31,920 nucleotides of DNA from the IMG/VR virus record IMGVR_UViG_2534681762_000007; one strand, 5' to 3'. How positions within the stretch are numbered: position 1 is the stretch's first letter; each line of letters starts with the position of its first letter. The position numbers were made by a program, and so were the translations under genes. Source of the DNA: a virus. Lineage: Duplodnaviria > Heunggongvirae > Uroviricota > Caudoviricetes. Of this stretch, positions 5,456-17,743 are shown one piece after another. The notes under the pieces were generated by a model. The model saw only the letters and a list, made by a program, of their open reading frames with translations, did not search any database and was not told the DNA's origin.

Positions 5456-5705
5456 TGTAATTTCCTTTTACTTTTTACAAAGCATTTAATCATGACTGAT
5501 TATCTCTAAGCGTAGTAACAGCCTTGTGCGAAACATGTTACCAAATCGCCATTTCAGTGTATCCACAGTTAGGCTGCCACTTCAAGGATTCCTAGTTACA
5601 TGGTACGTAAGCGTAATATCCCGTTGGTTGGCAGGTAATAACTCTGATCAATTCTCCCTTGTCTTTTGCTCTTACGTATGCAAATCTTGTACACTCAACC
5701 TAGGC

Positions 5706-6008
5706 CTACAGTTCAGCAATACGCTTACTTCCATCCGAGATAACACCTTCGTAATATTCACGCTGCTCGTTGAGTTTTGATTTTGCTGCTTCCAGTTCAA
5801 CGCGCAGCTTTCCTACCGTTAGCGCAATTTCCTCGTTCTCCTGGTCGCGGCGTTTGATGTATTGCTGGTTTCTTTCCCGCTCATCCAGCAGTTCCAGCAC
5901 AATCGATGGTGTTACCAATTCATGGAAAAGGTCTGCGTCAAATCCCCAGTCGTCATGCATTGCCTGCTCTGCCGCTTCACGCAGTGCCTGAGAGTTAATT
6001 TCGCTCAC
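5706..6008 (-). CDS. ea22: Ea22-like protein, N-terminal ~100 aa only (C-terminal part replaced by accessory cassette)
   Basis: MSEINSQALREAAEQAMHDDWGFDADLFHELVTPSIVLELLDERERNQQYIKRRDQENE... matches my memory of the lambda Ea22 N-terminus; ORF stops at 5706 where lambda-like DNA ends. Confidence 0.6.
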   Translation of the reverse strand: MSEINSQALREAAEQAMHDDWGFDADLFHELVTPSIVLELLDERERNQQYIKRRDQENEEIALTVGKLRVELEAAKSKLNEQREYYEGVISDGSKRIAEL

Positions 6009-6226
6009 TTCGAACCTCTCTGTTTACTGATAAGCTCCAGATCTTCCTGGCAACTTGCACAAGTCCGACAACCCTGAACGACCAGGCGTCTTCGTTCATC
6101 TATCGGATCGCCACACTCACAACAATGAGTGGCAGATATAGCCTGGTGGTTCAGGCGGCGCATTTTTATTGCTGTGTTGCGCTGTAATTCTTCAATTTCT
6201 GATGCTGAATCAATGATGTCTGCCAT
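6005..6226 (-). CDS. TraR/DksA-type C4 zinc-finger protein (lambda orf61 position)
   Basis: 73-aa ORF with CCECGDPIDERRRLVVQGCRTCASC motif; position between ea22 and exo as in lambda. Confidence 0.75.
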   Translation of the reverse strand: MADIIDSASEIEELQRNTAIKMRRLNHQAISATHCCECGDPIDERRRLVVQGCRTCASCQEDLELISKQRGSK

Positions 6227-6324
6227 CTTCCATTAATCCCTGAATTGTTGGTTAATACGCTTGAGGGTGAATGCGAATAATAAAAAAGGAGCCTGTAGCT
6301 CCCTGATGATTTTGCTTTTCATGT

Positions 6325-6540
6325 TCATCGTTCCTTAAAGACGCCGTTTAACATGCCGATTGCCAGGCTTAAATGAGTCGGTGTGAATCCCATCAGCGTT
6401 ACCGTTTCGCGGTGCTTCTTCAGTACGCTACGGCAAATGTCATCGACGTTTTTATCCGGAAACTGCTGTCTGGCTTTTTTGATTTCAGAATTAGCCTGAC
6501 GGGCAATGCTGCGAAGGGCGTTTTCCTGCTGAGGTGTCAT
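6325..6540 (-). CDS. Small early-left protein (lambda orf63 position)
   Basis: 71-aa ORF from internal ATG at 6540 (MTPQQENALRSIARQANSEIKKARQQF...); the track ORF extends further upstream in the same frame. Confidence 0.55.
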   Translation of the reverse strand: MTPQQENALRSIARQANSEIKKARQQFPDKNVDDICRSVLKKHRETVTLMGFTPTHLSLAIGMLNGVFKER

Positions 6541-6616
6541 TGAACAAGTCCCATGTCGGCAAGCATAAGCACACAGAATATGAAGCCCGCTGCCAGAAAA
6601 ATGCATTCAGTGGTTG

Positions 6617-6808
6617 TCATACCTGGTCTCTCTCATCTGCTTCTGCTTTCGCCACCATCATTTCCAGCTTTTGTGAAAGGGATGCGGCTAACGTGTGAAA
6701 TTCTTCGTCTGTTTCTACTGGTATTGGCACAAACCTGACTCCAATTTGAGCGAGGCTATGTGCCATCTCGATACTCGTTCTTAACTCAACGGGAGATGCT
6801 TTGTGCAT
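6617..6808 (-). CDS. Small early-left protein (lambda orf60a position)
   Basis: 63-aa ORF MHKASPVELRTSIEMAHSLAQIGVRFVPIPVETDEEF... immediately downstream of exo in transcription order. Confidence 0.55.
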   Translation of the reverse strand: MHKASPVELRTSIEMAHSLAQIGVRFVPIPVETDEEFHTLAASLSQKLEMMVAKAEADERDQV

Positions 6809-14116: not shown

Positions 14117-14183
14117 TGAAACAGGTGAGTTGAGTTCAAACTGTAGTACAATTCTCTCCAGTTTGAACAGGAAAGAATATTCT

Positions 14184-14516
14184 ATGAACCCTTATATTTA
14201 TCTTGGTGGTGCAATACTTGCAGAGGTCATTGGTACAACCTTAATGAAGTTTTCAGAAGGTTTTACACGGTTATGGCCATCTGTTGGTACAATTATTTGT
14301 TATTGTGCATCATTCTGGTTATTAGCTCAGACGCTGGCTTATATTCCTACAGGGATTGCTTATGCTATCTGGTCAGGAGTCGGTATTGTCCTGATTAGCT
14401 TACTGTCATGGGGACTTTTCGGCCAACGGCTGGACCTGCCAGCCATTATAGGCATGATGTTGATTTGTGCCGGTGTGTTGGTTATTAATTTATTGTCACG
14501 AAGCACACCACATTAA
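14184..14516 (+). CDS. emrE: Small multidrug resistance efflux transporter EmrE
   Basis: 110-aa product MNPYIYLGGAILAEVIGTTLMKFSEGFTRLWPSVGTIICYCASFWLLAQTLAYIPTGIAYAIWSGVGIVLISLLSWG... matches E. coli EmrE with 4 TM helices; the track ORF starts 54 nt upstream. Confidence 0.95.
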   Translation: MNPYIYLGGAILAEVIGTTLMKFSEGFTRLWPSVGTIICYCASFWLLAQTLAYIPTGIAYAIWSGVGIVLISLLSWGLFGQRLDLPAIIGMMLICAGVLVINLLSRSTPH

Positions 14517-14546
14517 AAATAATTTGTTTCTAAACGACTAAAATAT

Positions 14547-14585
14547 GGAGGCTCTTATATTTATATGAGCCTCGTTTTATGCTTT
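14547..14585 (+). terminator. Intrinsic terminator after emrE
   Basis: Stem GGAGGCTC / GAGCCTC (14547..14573) followed by GTTTTATGCTTTTTG. Confidence 0.7.
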
Positions 14586-14772
14586 TTGTTAATGTCTTTA
14601 TTTTTTTATGTATTCTTTTGTGCTTTCAAGATTATGGCGTAAGAAAATTGCAATACGATTATTGTTGTATATTCAAGATAATGTGACCTTAATTGTCTTT
14701 TTAAATAAAAATTAAACAAAAATTATATCCCACCACTAAGGTTTATAAAAGCATACGTTAGCAGGTGTCACC

Positions 14773-16299
14773 ATGAAAAAAGCCATAGCATATATGCGAT
14801 TTTCATCACCAGGTCAGATGTCTGGCGACTCATTAAACCGACAGAGAAGACTTATTGCTGAATGGTTAAAGGTAAATAGTGATTATTATCTTGATACCAT
14901 AACATATGAAGATTTAGGATTAAGTGCATTCAAAGGAAAGCATGCACAATCAGGAGCTTTTTCGGAATTTTTAGATGCTATAGAGCATGGTTATATATTG
15001 CCAGGAACTACATTGTTAGTTGAAAGTCTGGACAGACTTTCAAGAGAAAAAGTCGGTGAAGCGATTGAACGTCTGAAATTGATTTTGAATCACGGTATTG
15101 ATGTTATAACTCTTTGCGACAATACAGTCTATAATATTGACTCTTTGAATGAGCCATATTCATTAATAAAAGCCATACTTATAGCACAAAGGGCAAATGA
15201 AGAAAGCGAGATAAAGTCAAGTCGGGTTAAATTATCATGGAAGAAAAAACGGCAGGATGCACTGGAATCAGGTACGATTATGACGGCGTCTTGTCCGAGA
15301 TGGCTCTCCTTAGATGACAAAAGAACGGCTTTTGTTCCAGACCCCGACAGGGTGAAAACTATTGAGCTAATTTTTAAACTCAGGATGGAAAGGCGCTCAT
15401 TGAATGCAATAGCCAAGTATTTAAATGATCATGCTGTAAAGAATTTCTCAGGAAAAGAAAGTGCATGGGGACCTTCTGTAATTGAAAAATTATTAGCGAA
15501 TAAAGCTCTGATAGGTATATGCGTACCTTCATATCGTGCAAGAGGTAAAGGAATAAGTGAAATCGCTGGCTATTATCCCAGAGTCATATCAGATGATTTG
15601 TTTTACGCTGTACAGGAAATTCGGTTGGCACCTTTTGGTATTAGCAATAGTAGCAAAAATCCTATGTTGATAAATCTACTTCGAACAGTTATGAAGTGCG
15701 AGGCTTGTGGTAATACCATGATTGTTCATGCGGTATCTGGAAGTTTGCATGGCTATTATGTTTGTCCGATGAGAAGACTGCATCGATGTGACAGGCCATC
15801 AATAAAGAGAGATTTGGTTGATTATAATATCATTAATGAGTTGCTTTTTAATTGTAGTAAAATCCAACCAGTTGAAAACAAGAAAGATGCTAATGAAACT
15901 TTAGAGTTGAAAATTATTGAGCTCCAGATGAAAATTAATAATTTAATTGCTGCATTATCTGTTGCGCCTGAAGTTACCGCTATAGCAGAAAAAATCAGAG
16001 TATTAGATAAGGAATTACGAAGGGCTTCTGTATCATTAAAAACTTTGAAGAGTAAAGCGGTGAGTTCACTTGGTGATTTTCATGCTATTGACTTAACCAG
16101 TAAAAATGGGCGAGAGCTATGTCGTACACTTGCCTATAAAACATTCGAAAAAATCATAATCAATACAGATAATAAAACCTGTGATATCTATTTTATGAAT
16201 GGCATTGTTTTTAAACACTATCCTTTAATGAAAACAATATCCGCCCAGCAGGCGATAAGTACTCTCAAATATATGGTTGATGGTGAGGTTTATTTTTGA
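14773..16299 (+). CDS. ybcK: Large serine recombinase (YbcK-type, DLP12-like)
   Basis: 508-aa AT-rich ORF MKKAIAYMRFSSPGQMSGDSLNRQRRLIAEWL... with resolvase-type N-terminal catalytic Ser region and Cys-rich recombinase domain (CEACGNTM...CPMRRLHRC); matches my memory of K-12 YbcK. Confidence 0.9.
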   Translation: MKKAIAYMRFSSPGQMSGDSLNRQRRLIAEWLKVNSDYYLDTITYEDLGLSAFKGKHAQSGAFSEFLDAIEHGYILPGTTLLVESLDRLSREKVGEAIERLKLILNHGIDVITLCDNTVYNIDSLNEPYSLIKAILIAQRANEESEIKSSRVKLSWKKKRQDALESGTIMTASCPRWLSLDDKRTAFVPDPDRVKTIELIFKLRMERRSLNAIAKYLNDHAVKNFSGKESAWGPSVIEKLLANKALIGICVPSYRARGKGISEIAGYYPRVISDDLFYAVQEIRLAPFGISNSSKNPMLINLLRTVMKCEACGNTMIVHAVSGSLHGYYVCPMRRLHRCDRPSIKRDLVDYNIINELLFNCSKIQPVENKKDANETLELKIIELQMKINNLIAALSVAPEVTAIAEKIRVLDKELRRASVSLKTLKSKAVSSLGDFHAIDLTSKNGRELCRTLAYKTFEKIIINTDNKTCDIYFMNGIVFKHYPLMKTISAQQAISTLKYMVDGEVYF

Positions 16300-16410: not shown

Positions 16411-16734
16411 ATGGATGCTGGCGTTCTCGTTCTAGCAGTTCAACAATACCCAATCACAAAACAATTCACTGATAACGAACTTTGCACACTCGCCTGGTTA
16501 TGGCGAGCAGGGAATGTGATGTTAATTACCTACCAGAACGTTACTCCTCTTCTTCAGGTTGCGGAGCATCGTGAAGCTGGTCGCTTCACTTCTATCGAGC
16601 AAGAATATCCCCAGATACTCAATAAGGCACAGGCAATCCTTGCCAGAGAAACGGCACATGTAAAATTCCGGCCGTGGCAGGATGATAAGTGGAGTCGAGT
16701 TTTGCCGCATTTACGTTCGGATCGATTACAGTAG
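16411..16734 (+). CDS. Hypothetical 107-aa ORF (uncertain coding status)
   Basis: Open frame MDAGVLVLAVQQYPITKQFTDNELCTLAWLWRAGNVMLITY... with no recognisable RBS or homolog; the only ORF between ybcK and the ORF-free stretch. Confidence 0.35.
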   Translation: MDAGVLVLAVQQYPITKQFTDNELCTLAWLWRAGNVMLITYQNVTPLLQVAEHREAGRFTSIEQEYPQILNKAQAILARETAHVKFRPWQDDKWSRVLPHLRSDRLQ

Positions 16735-17195
16735 ATTCCAATTAACAATGAGAAACACATAGCCACCCCGTGGTATTGAAACCATATAATGTTGGATTTG
16801 AAAACAGATCTTTTTCCATGTATTAATAACTACATCCCCGCGAGTGATTCAAAAAGGAGGGCCCAATTTTGTCCGAGTTTTTGTATTCCCCCGCATGCCG
16901 CTGCGGAGCACTACATCTGAGTGTCTGACTAGGGGATAAAATTAGACTGGATAGTGAGAAGAAAGTGGCGTGCTAGGCTGTGCCGAGTGCTACCAGTACA
17001 CCCTGGGGGTGTGCAGCTTTCGCCGAGACTGTAGTGGGTATCGGTTAATGCACGAAAAACCGAGAGGTCAGACAACCAATTTGCCGTAGGATTGTTTCCG
17101 GTGCGATACCGGTGTACTAACTGAAAGCAATGCGAAAAAGCATAAACTCGGTCCTTCAGTCGCCCTACACACTATTTACTAAGAAGGGCTAAAGC

Positions 17196-17552
17196 ATGGA
17201 TACAATTATCACATGGATGGGAGATCGTCTGTTGGGGTGGATAACAAACAAATCCGATCTGCGGCAGAGGGCAATCACTGGATTAACTCCTGCGATTTAT
17301 TCAACAATTTTATATACTGAAAAATTAAAACGTGGTGAGCCTAATAACCCAAACGAAGAAGAAAAACTTTATAGGCTTTGGTATGAAGCGTCTTCCCAAG
17401 TCGTAGACTTTGATCGAGAGCTGGCTAAAAGATGTTTAGATAAATCAGAATATTGGCTTCATTCTGAATTATATAGCCCTGAGAAAGTTGGAGAGCTAAA
17501 CATTTCTTTGGTTGGTATGAAGGCAACGCTTGAAGGAATAAAGCACAATTAA
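17196..17552 (+). CDS. Hypothetical 118-aa protein (AT-rich orphan)
   Basis: ORF MDTIITWMGDRLLGWITNKSDLRQRAITGLTPAIYSTILYTEKLKRGEPNNPNEEEK... preceded by AAGAAGGG about 8 nt before ATG; no homolog recognised. Confidence 0.5.
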   Translation: MDTIITWMGDRLLGWITNKSDLRQRAITGLTPAIYSTILYTEKLKRGEPNNPNEEEKLYRLWYEASSQVVDFDRELAKRCLDKSEYWLHSELYSPEKVGELNISLVGMKATLEGIKHN

Positions 17553-17641
17553 AACCTTTGATTTGCGATAATCAACTCGCCATAATCATGTCATCGGAGC
17601 CTGAACAACTCCGGTGACTTCTGCGCTAAACGGGGACGTTT

Positions 17642-17743
17642 ATGCGCACACACAATCCAAACTCTCTTCTCCCTCCACAGATGCAGAAATGCACCTGCGA
17701 TATATTGTATCCAGCGTTTGACCTCTGCGGAGGTGAAGCGTGA
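17642..17743 (+). CDS. ylcH: Small protein YlcH (33 aa)
   Basis: [33 protein letters not shown]; position just upstream of ybcN as in DLP12 as I recall it. Confidence 0.55.

Follow-up and report, generated by a model that had tools for sequence, protein, structure and literature searches.

The 31,920-nt viral sequence analyzed here (IMG/VR record IMGVR_UViG_2534681762_000007; "the window" below denotes this whole stretch) is a DLP12-like lambdoid prophage of Escherichia coli, and 1.44 kb around the feature under study are 100% identical to several RefSeq chromosomes. The genes follow the order O, P, ren-like, emrE, ybcK (serine recombinase), a 107-amino acid (aa) remnant, a 461-bp segment, a 118-aa open reading frame (ORF), ybcN/ninB, ninE, ybcO and rusA, an order that confirms the assignment of the 461-bp segment to the nin region of a lambdoid prophage, made in a preliminary description of this DNA. 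We found that positions 16834-17165 of this region constitute, on the plus strand, the gene for a structured non-coding RNA of about 332 nt, belonging to a family outside Rfam. This is a previously uncatalogued RNA gene of temperate enterobacterial phages, and its product has a complex fold.

The absence of any ORF of 60 aa or more between 16735 and 17195, noted in the preliminary description, was borne out. The longest internal ORFs comprise 48, 43 and 39 aa, and the only intruder is a 70-aa minus-strand ORF (16554..16766) overlapping the segment by 32 nt. RefSeq/PGAP annotation places no feature at the segment in any of the 159 carrier E. coli genomes (see below). Taken alone, 460 nt devoid of ORFs are not improbable; what is unusual is a conserved gene-free segment within a dense phage operon. 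The GC content is 0.47-0.52 over positions 16800-17200, as compared to 0.35-0.39 in the 118-aa ORF, 0.30-0.34 in ybcK and 0.44-0.49 in the ORF directly upstream (16411-16734). The AT-rich flanks previously attributed to the segment are thus found downstream and, further upstream, in ybcK, but not in the adjoining upstream ORF.

Distribution and fold of the RNA

As a unit, the RNA gene is conserved across prophages of several Enterobacterales genera. It is carried by 159 of 5426 complete E. coli genomes (about 3%) and is annotated in none of them; 2950 E. coli records match part of a 1.44-kb query surrounding the RNA, the RNA itself being found in just those 159 genomes. Four phage records contain it, namely Turner, IdasGreatGrand and the Klebsiella phages Kp4856-1 and Kp4862-1 (78% identity for the copy in the last two), and pattern scans identified about 70 IMG/VR loci and 26 metagenome loci. 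Genomes of Enterobacter bugandensis and Obesumbacterium proteus carrying the RNA were reached via the neighboring 118-aa protein. The sequences collected include 28 distinct variants and represent only about eight lineages. Core identity among lineages ranges from 72 to 100%, and 172 of the 332 alignment columns are invariant. Homology starts at a promoter-like motif and stops a few bases short of the terminator. Outside these limits the genes on both sides vary: upstream neighbors include a P22AR remnant, a dATP/dGTP pyrophosphohydrolase gene (intact or as a pseudogene) and others, while zero to several unrelated genes separate the RNA from ninB, upstream of which it sits. The orientation of the RNA, directly 5' of an ORF, is constant across loci. 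Other cargo occupies the site in PhiR26_1 and PhiR5_1, the presence of the RNA between conserved phage genes being patchy. Two scans of species-representative genomes returned no match in one case and, in the other, 10 matches (in Saccharibacteria, Bradyrhizobium and others) that nhmmer confirmed to be due to chance. An nhmmer profile search of the collected loci and the window gave no extra or more distant copies, apart from a 43-nt module on Alteromonas plasmids described below.

The structural model comprises 88 base pairs in 17 helices. Pairs were counted on two MAFFT alignments built without reference to structure; alignments with the 3' partners slid by 1-3 columns, as well as shuffles, served as controls. 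In the two alignments, 98.3% and 97.2% of the cells were paired (31-46% when slid), double changes were found in 14 and 19 pairs, and the cells with double changes numbered 126 and 135, against 0-23 in the slid controls. None of 500 shuffles reached the observed covariation score. Covariation among homologous prophages, which the preliminary description had named as a way to check its candidate RNA, is therefore present, with 19 pairs showing compensatory changes and with both types of control being surpassed. RNAalifold, applied to a plain MAFFT alignment, predicted 81 pairs, 13 of them compensatory, and an energy of -79 kcal on the plus strand versus -58 kcal on the minus strand. Helix cells contain 325 G·U as opposed to 3 A·C combinations, which fixes the plus strand and rules out the opposite strand as well as a structure at the DNA level. 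The element is thus almost certainly a genuine structured RNA specified by the plus strand, and its fold, strand and family limits are well supported.

The model consists of two domains of about 104 and 217 nt (Table 1), in which invariant blocks alternate with co-varying stems. Helices P1 and P2 of domain 1 are nearly invariant; P3 and P5 vary between G·U, A-U and G-C, with one compensatory pair in P5. The strongest covariation in domain 2 is found in P8 (16961-16969/17013-17021), P9, P11, P12 (17022-17030/17037-17045), P13 and P16. Two GC-rich stems that had been picked out by eye proved to be real: ACACCC-TGG-GGGTGT is helix P11 (17000-17003/17007-17010), which undergoes AU-to-GC and CG-to-AU changes in relatives, and CCGGT-GCGAT-ACCGG is helix P16 (17098-17102/17108-17112), whose loop-closing pair varies between UA, AU and CG.

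Two long-range contacts connect the domains. The first is a 6-bp kissing loop occurring in four complementary versions (CACUAC/GUAGUG, CACCAC/GUGGUG, CGCAAC/GUUGCG and CAUCAC/GUGAUG), in which all cells are paired and three of the six pairs show double changes. The second is a 7-bp pseudoknot combining UCUGAC(C/U) with GGUCAGA, the C or U of the end pair facing a G and the strands being otherwise invariant except in the most divergent lineage (L118-L120, found by a pattern for the 5' module); here, the strands read UCUGAUC and GAUCAGA, a C-G to U-A exchange at a paired position. Taken together, the 13 pairs of the two contacts are 100% paired and four show double changes, whereas slid controls are 25-44% paired with no double change. 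The kissing loop is well supported. Support for the pseudoknot is moderate, consisting of one compensatory event and wobble-compatible changes: with few lineages, shared descent can produce single events of this type, which makes them weak evidence when taken alone. An all-against-all covariation screen gave many spurious pairs and served solely to locate the kissing loop, whose pairing was then tested separately.

No known family was recognized. At gathering thresholds, none of the 4227 models of Rfam 15 matched anywhere in the window; these models include riboswitches, ribozymes, RNase P, 6S, transfer-messenger RNA (tmRNA), group I and II introns, ROOL, GOLLD, OLE, raiA, HEARO and enterobacterial small RNAs (sRNAs). 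Permissive Rfam scans of three divergent copies yielded matches at the level of noise or of terminators, scoring 11-25 bits against cut-offs of 37-90. ARAGORN detected no transfer RNA (tRNA) or tmRNA gene in the window, so that the earlier failure to see any tRNA or riboswitch pattern by eye was justified; Tandem Repeats Finder detected neither tandem repeats nor iterons. The RNA is not described in the papers on svsR and the Pas sRNAs, in the 2025 review of phage sRNAs or in a 50-genome survey of non-coding RNAs.

Table 1. Features of the RNA gene and its surroundings (window coordinates)
Feature	Position	Strand	Remarks
Structured non-coding RNA, ~332 nt	16834..17165	+	Unit conservation, covariation, G·U excess, no Rfam match
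Domain 1	16834..16937	+	Closing helix P1 (16834-16839/16932-16937), long arm P2-P4, hairpin P5 (16899-16907/16916-16923)
Domain 2	16945..17161	+	Closing helix P7 (16945-16950/17156-17161) around P8-P12 and P13-P17
Kissing-loop strand 1, P5 loop, CACUAC	16909..16914	+	Pairs with 17031-17036
Kissing-loop strand 2, P12 loop, GUAGUG	17031..17036	+	Pairs with 16909-16914
Pseudoknot strand 1, UCUGACU	16924..16930	+	Complementary to 17066-17072
Pseudoknot strand 2, GGUCAGA	17066..17072	+	Complementary to 16924-16930
Shine-Dalgarno (SD)-like AGGAGG (16855-16860) and UUG-initiated 19-codon mini-ORF (16869-16928, MSEFLYSPACRCGALHLSV)	16855..16928	+	Perfect SD 8 nt before UUG
Candidate -35 hexamer TTGAAA	16798..16803	+	GTTG.A conserved at -36..-31
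Candidate -10 element TATTAA / ATTAAT (relatives TTTAAT or TTAAAT)	16821..16827	+	TT.AAT conserved at -12..-7 from invariant RNA 5' end
Linker with ribosome-binding site of 118-aa ORF	17166..17195	+	Terminator site in most relatives, none in window
Upstream neighbor, 107-aa ORF	16411..16734	+	P22 antirepressor C-terminal domain only, Pfam PF10548, E 1e-15; RefSeq annotation
118-aa ORF	17196..17552	+	phrog_12412; predicted to be co-transcribed with RNA in window lineage

Transcription signals and downstream genes

A gap-free alignment of 23 upstream regions, anchored on the first base of the RNA, brought out two conserved motifs at positions appropriate for a promoter (Table 1). Neither the 17-18 nt spacer separating the motifs nor the DNA lying further 5' is conserved in these loci. 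This pattern points to a putative sigma-70-like promoter belonging to the RNA itself. In most lineages (L064, L056, L062, L067, L112, L118-L120 and others), the region about 50 nt upstream of the RNA start contains an inverted repeat, ACCATAT-N3-5-TATGGT (or TATAGT), which ends at the -35 and is preceded by an A-tract; it is absent from the window. The inverted repeat might serve as an operator or as an activator site, and the A-tract as an UP element; the promoter would then be a regulated one. In two loci (L097, positions 5553-6807, and L070), an element of the IS3 family of about 1.25 kb, encoding OrfA (103 aa) and OrfB (275 aa) and bounded by terminal inverted repeats TGTAGTGG/CCACTACA, has inserted exactly in the candidate -10 (window positions 16822-16825) with a 3-4 bp target duplication. 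As the RNA on the 3' side is intact (99.7% identical), the insertion either silences it or supplies a new promoter.

At the other end, 18 of the 28 distinct variants have a canonical intrinsic terminator (A-tract, GC stem, U7-8) located 6-12 nt past the conserved ...CCAGUCGCC. When the tail is folded alone, the terminator hairpins measure -12.6 to -23 kcal; four of these gave -14.3 to -23.6 kcal, with z scores of -3.1 to -5.2. The tail of the window copy, at -6.7 to -6.9 kcal (z score -0.8), has no terminator. Terminators persist in minimum-energy folds of the full-length RNA, where no competing antiterminator pairing was seen, and their sequences differ by lineage without matching changes in the RNA. 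Lack of a terminator in the window lineage implies that the RNA runs into the 118-aa ORF. The suggestion that the segment is a long structured 5' leader of this gene, made in the preliminary description, is in this lineage literally true.

The 118-aa protein is predicted to form a four-helix bundle (predicted local distance difference test score, 80) with no significant fold match in PDB, and it has no match in Pfam, NCBIfam or PADLOC. In L064, L059, L112 (Enterobacter bugandensis) and L110 (Obesumbacterium proteus), a homologue with 69-79% identity comes immediately after the RNA, so that the fusion of the RNA to this ORF is found in five RNA lineages and three genera. A more distant homologue (51% identity) is encoded near an integrase gene, away from any copy of the RNA. 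In E. coli prophages of the L106 type, the ORF is cut to 66 aa and the RNA is retained, with 98.8% identity to the copy in the window; three positions within it have changed, and two of these lie in helices, where pairing is maintained by wobble. We considered a functional tie between the RNA and the 118-aa protein and rejected it, the protein being a plain four-helix bundle without family match and having a distant homologue that does without the RNA. In L106, L102 and related E. coli loci (the 96-99% group), the remainder of the ORF shows 82% protein identity as compared to 98-99% for the RNA, the change occurring about 30 nt past the latter. These figures point to a recombination junction directly at the RNA 3' end.

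Downstream of the RNA, genes for proteins of 118 aa, 176/183 aa, 95 aa or 191 aa are found, or none: in locus L119, ninB comes immediately after the RNA and its terminator, and cargo genes are absent. A common origin of the 118-aa and 176/183-aa proteins was discarded on account of an hhalign probability of 0.2. The 176-aa protein of the Klebsiella type (183 aa from an upstream ATG; L004 4437-4967, also in L118, L120, L093, L025 and L084) comes after the terminator in two divergent RNA lineages. It has an invariant IRLRHNLLHANKYE segment in which RHNLLH constitutes an Rx4H motif like that of HEPN RNases. No match to this protein was found in Pfam, NCBIfam, PADLOC or PDB sequences, and profile searches lend the Rx4H motif no support.

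Autonomous RNA, leader or messenger

Of the possibilities entertained in the preliminary description, that of a non-coding RNA has strong backing: the segment is conserved as a unit, its helices show compensatory changes and strand-specific G·U pairs, and it comes with a promoter motif and, in relatives, with terminators. Its promoter, mode of action and biological role we infer. On balance, the best explanation, and a fairly probable one, is that the locus is a self-contained gene of the moron type specifying a compactly folded, free-acting RNA. Transcription would initiate at the invariant AUCCCC from a sigma-70-type promoter and, in most lineages, would stop at a strong intrinsic terminator soon after ...CCAGUCGCC; having a promoter motif and a terminator of its own, the gene would constitute a self-contained "moron" unit just upstream of the nin genes. 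In the window lineage, where the terminator is missing, the RNA would double as the 5' part of the 118-aa ORF transcript. One could envision that the RNA, as a free compact fold, binds a protein or a small ligand or acts as a catalyst, rather than pairing with messenger RNAs (mRNAs) in the way sRNAs do, and that it benefits the prophage, in lysogens or at an early stage of infection, without depending on neighboring genes. As for its way of acting, an autonomous RNA working mainly in trans has roughly even chances and ranks first; a leader acting in cis comes second, a micropeptide mRNA or dual-function RNA is a distant third, and everything else is jointly very improbable.

In kind, the element is closest to lambdoid moron units and to the ROOL and GOLLD RNAs, homology to neither being detectable. 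Like the lambdoid morons bor, lom and rexAB, which are autonomous units of promoter, gene and terminator, and like moron-type prophage sRNAs (DicF, IpeX, AsxR/AgvB, the Pas sRNAs, svsR), it is an insertion between conserved phage genes with a patchy distribution; it has a promoter motif and, in 18 of the 28 variants (the window lineage not being among them), a terminator, and it occupies a recognized hot spot, situated between the replication genes and ninB, that elsewhere holds PD-lambda-1, Rha and others. The Pas sRNAs themselves are short and terminator-bearing. The element differs from all of these in that its product is a 332-nt highly structured RNA, neither a protein nor a base-pairing sRNA of 50-200 nt. 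With ROOL and GOLLD (and also with OLE and raiA) it shares a length of over 300 nt, a multi-helix architecture, invariant unpaired blocks and long-range tertiary pairings; as with ROOL and GOLLD, it is carried by temperate phages and prophages, where it would form a discrete transcription unit, and its function cannot be read from its neighbors. In contrast to the latter two, it measures 332 nt rather than roughly 580-800 nt, resides in lambdoid phages of Enterobacterales rather than in Firmicutes, contains an SD and a mini-ORF, and matches their Rfam models neither in sequence nor in structure. ROOL and GOLLD have been found by cryo-electron microscopy to multimerise (bioRxiv 10.1101/2024.12.08.627333).

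A number of observations weigh against an autonomous RNA gene. The comparison draws on about eight lineages only, and many column pairs outside the structure co-vary equally by shared descent. The -11 position of the candidate promoter is a T, not the usual A, and a simple consensus scanner did not call the motif; the same scanner also missed the obvious terminator of L004, whose stem probably runs into the U-tract, and which folding confirmed. The window lineage as well as L064, L059, L112 and L110 are without terminator, with the 118-aa ORF beginning about 30 nt after the RNA. Where a terminator is present, the next ORF lies within about 25-60 nt, which leaves no room for a promoter of its own; expression of that ORF must hence depend on read-through. 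Finally, a mini-ORF preceded by a perfect SD is open within domain 1 in 25 of the 28 distinct variants. That this frame is kept open hints at a link to translation, needless for an RNA acting purely in trans.

The main rival of the autonomous reading is a cis-acting leader, be it riboswitch-like, a translation-coupled attenuator or Rho-dependent, which would control the downstream gene or genes, here the 118-aa ORF. Perhaps through translation of the 19-codon mini-ORF or through ligand binding, such a leader would decide whether transcription or translation goes on. We regard this as possible though clearly less likely than autonomous action. The RNA always has the same orientation, directly 5' of a promoterless ORF, and is fused to the 118-aa ORF without an intervening terminator in five lineages. 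Promoter, structured RNA, intrinsic terminator and ORF succeed one another in the usual layout of riboswitches. Large riboswitches and leaders such as the cobalamin and lysine riboswitches and the T-box, whose tertiary contacts are coupled to an expression platform, are further brought to mind by the two domains joined through a kissing loop and a pseudoknot and by the SD-containing segment inside the fold. The SD and UUG-initiated mini-ORF overlap both tertiary contacts, and translation would unfold the RNA. Unlike in large riboswitches, however, no alternative between terminator and antiterminator is visible: terminators change from lineage to lineage without changes in the RNA and remain in full-length folds. 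The genes that would be regulated are unrelated to each other (hhalign probability 0.2) or absent, as in L119 before ninB; the RNA is nearly unchanged where the 118-aa ORF is truncated; and no Rfam riboswitch family matches. To our knowledge, the RNA is also larger than any single known aptamer. Genes of the nin region share one orientation and have no promoters of their own in any event. Autonomy of the RNA is therefore favored over a leader function by the strong terminators, the unrelated downstream families, L119, the truncated ORF of L106-type prophages and the homologue of the 118-aa protein that occurs without the RNA.

The mini-ORF raises a different possibility, an unlikely one in our judgment, namely that the transcript serves as an mRNA, or as an RNA of dual function, that encodes a 19-aa micropeptide (MSEFLYSPACRC...LSV) ahead of an extended structured 3' region, in the style of transcripts for small toxins or leader peptides. 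A perfect AGGAGG stands 8 nt before the UUG, the ORF and the position of its stop codon are kept in 25 of the 28 variants, and the N-terminal 12 residues are nearly invariant. Residues 13-16, on the other hand, change radically between lineages (G/R/E, A/V, L/P/Q/S and H/P), and three variants are cut at codon 13. In codons 1-12 the synonymous sites do not vary, and the codons that differ between lineages coincide exactly with the co-varying P5 stem and kissing loop; both findings trace the constraint to the RNA. In contrast to type I toxins, the peptide is not hydrophobic, the calculated probability of a 19-codon frame being open by chance is about 0.4, and some 240 nt of strongly co-varying RNA lie outside the mini-ORF. 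A conserved peptide is thus probably not what the frame encodes. The mini-ORF spans P4, P3, P2, P5, the kissing loop and one pseudoknot strand; covering these helices and both tertiary strands, a translating ribosome would unfold domain 1. Translation and folding of this domain would exclude each other, which might constitute a functional link.

The 5' part of the RNA has a possible counterpart on Alteromonas plasmids. In an unannotated intergenic region of the Alteromonas mediterranea plasmid pAMDE1 (NC_019394.1, approximately 98800-98990; L117 2480-2660), only the 43-nt 5' module of the RNA is shared. The module, made up of an CAAAAAGGAGG hairpin, UUG and ACC-AAG-UUU-UUG, is present on four Alteromonas conjugative plasmids (BLAST E value 6e-4; nhmmer 1.9e-9 in a small database) and is followed there by a 12-codon ORF (MTKFLNYTRHPE) and a different GC-rich folded stretch. 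The similarity of these SD-hairpin, UUG and UUUUUG elements ahead of a short ORF could be counted in favor of a peptide; it may stem from a translation-initiation or hairpin module common to both, or be fortuitous.

That the RNA is an unrecognized member of a known phage or defence class (RNA anti-CRISPRs, type III antitoxins, put-like antiterminator RNAs or Hfq-dependent sRNAs) is very unlikely. U-tailed terminators are typical of sRNAs, and the RNA sits where lambda has its terminator tR2. The Rfam sRNA models match the terminator alone, with 11-25 bits against cut-offs of 50-70. A screen for base-pairing targets among genes of the window and the loci found complementarity of 11-13 nt at chance level and none that is conserved, a 12-nt match to ninB being absent from other lineages. 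Like the put RNAs of phage HK022, the RNA is an element of a lambdoid phage that immediately precedes a terminator of the early rightward operon. The put RNAs are cis-acting antiterminators of about 70 nt located beside pL and pR; they fold into two stem-loops and lack promoters of their own. By this description they are set apart from the present RNA, which is mostly base-paired, five times longer than put RNAs and typical sRNAs, equipped with a promoter motif and located in the nin region. Type III toxin-antitoxin RNAs (ToxI, CptI, TenpI) and the RNA-regulated AbiF system of Clostridioides difficile prophages offer the same succession of promoter, RNA, terminator and small ORF of unknown function on a prophage. 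Unlike them, our RNA contains no tandem repeats, precedes ORFs that are unrelated to each other, and occurs in L119 without any such ORF; the downstream ORFs showed no relation to known toxins in Pfam, PADLOC, NCBIfam and PDB. Helix P1 and its flanks (AUCCCCGCG...CCAGGGGAUAAA) resemble the E. coli type I-E CRISPR repeat, a resemblance that is not significant. Mimicry of this repeat was rejected, since 1-17% of shuffles do as well as the best local match of 8-10 nt and since the linker that follows GGGGAU varies; a bona fide RNA anti-CRISPR (Racr, a solitary repeat unit) mimics the host CRISPR repeat in both sequence and hairpin (PMC10651486). The svsR RNA is a 77-nt hairpin at the 3' end of cI (PMC12803456); like the Pas sRNAs and those covered by the 2025 review, it is short and located elsewhere. 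As to a retron, no reverse transcriptase is found among the annotated or Pfam-marked neighbors, no search having been aimed at such enzymes, and the supported structure contains no helix joining the 5' end of the RNA to its 3' end, such as the a1/a2 inverted repeats of retrons would form.

An element acting as DNA, whether as a secondary origin, as a site of recombination or packaging or as a group of clustered protein-binding sites, would suit a position between replication and recombination genes and the presence of the serine recombinase gene ybcK 0.5 kb upstream in the window. It is highly improbable in light of the ratio of G·U to A·C, as a DNA hairpin or duplex site would not tolerate the one and exclude the other, and of the covariation in loop-loop and pseudoknot pairs; moreover, iterons and tandem repeats are lacking and ybcK is missing from most other loci bearing the element. 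The least credible reading, a decayed protein-coding fragment conserved only through its youth, which the preliminary description had left among its options, might seem encouraged by the adjoining antirepressor remnant and by a minus-strand ORF of 95-137 aa spanning the element in some relatives, and is ruled out by the lack of codon periodicity (46, 41 and 47 variable columns per codon phase, p = 0.79), by the absence of Pfam matches in any frame (for eight ORF fragments drawn from three lineages, one of them a minus-strand ORF of 108 aa), by ORFs that are broken at different places in each lineage, by invariant blocks alternating with co-varying stems at 72-100% identity, and by a G·U asymmetry that designates a plus-strand RNA, opposite to the long ORFs.

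Significance and other features of the locus

E. coli and its lambdoid phages are among the best-annotated of systems, yet an RNA of 332 nt and 17 helices has been present without annotation in about 3% of complete genomes. RNAs of this size and complexity are usually ribozymes, cores of ribonucleoproteins or elaborate sensors. ROOL and GOLLD are functionally unexplained; the RNA described here is found in genetically tractable hosts and phages, which makes its function directly testable. It is tempting to speculate, although we think it rather doubtful, that this RNA is the founding example of a new class in temperate enterobacterial phages, defined by two locked domains and an internal ribosome-binding site and mini-ORF whose translation would unfold the RNA. 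If so, it might be ribozyme-like, the core of a ribonucleoprotein, or a sensor of translation or of a ligand, used in conflicts between phage and host or between phages, and would be more than one further regulatory sRNA or leader.

On the practical side, gene callers set spurious small coding sequences on the RNA. The record of phage Turner (PP925837.1) has two coding sequences for hypothetical proteins of 43 and 39 aa (L006 3055-3186 and 3236-3355) annotated inside the RNA gene; these are non-conserved ORFs and probably gene-caller artefacts. The site being a hot spot for morons and defence genes, recognition of the RNA also alters the way in which the adjoining "hypothetical" genes are read.

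Upstream, the 107-aa ORF is the remnant of an antirepressor gene that lies beside the RNA and is not part of it. At the position of this remnant, PhiR26_1 and PhiR5_1 carry full Rha/antirepressor genes, accompanied in PhiR26_1 by PD-lambda-1 at the same site. Between the replication genes and the RNA, the window contains, at 14130-16299, emrE, which specifies a multidrug efflux protein, and the gene for a large serine recombinase of 508 aa, ybcK, an odd cargo for a lambdoid early operon; both genes are absent from most other loci carrying the RNA. Downstream, about 190 bp preceding ninB (17553-17740; L119 1066-1208) are conserved between the window, L119 and phage 82 (X92588.1) and contain the hairpin CGGAGCCUGAACAACUCCG. 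In the old record of phage 82, promoter signals and a "possible regulator-binding site" are annotated in this stretch, which is the first place in the window where transcripts from the putative RNA promoter could end.

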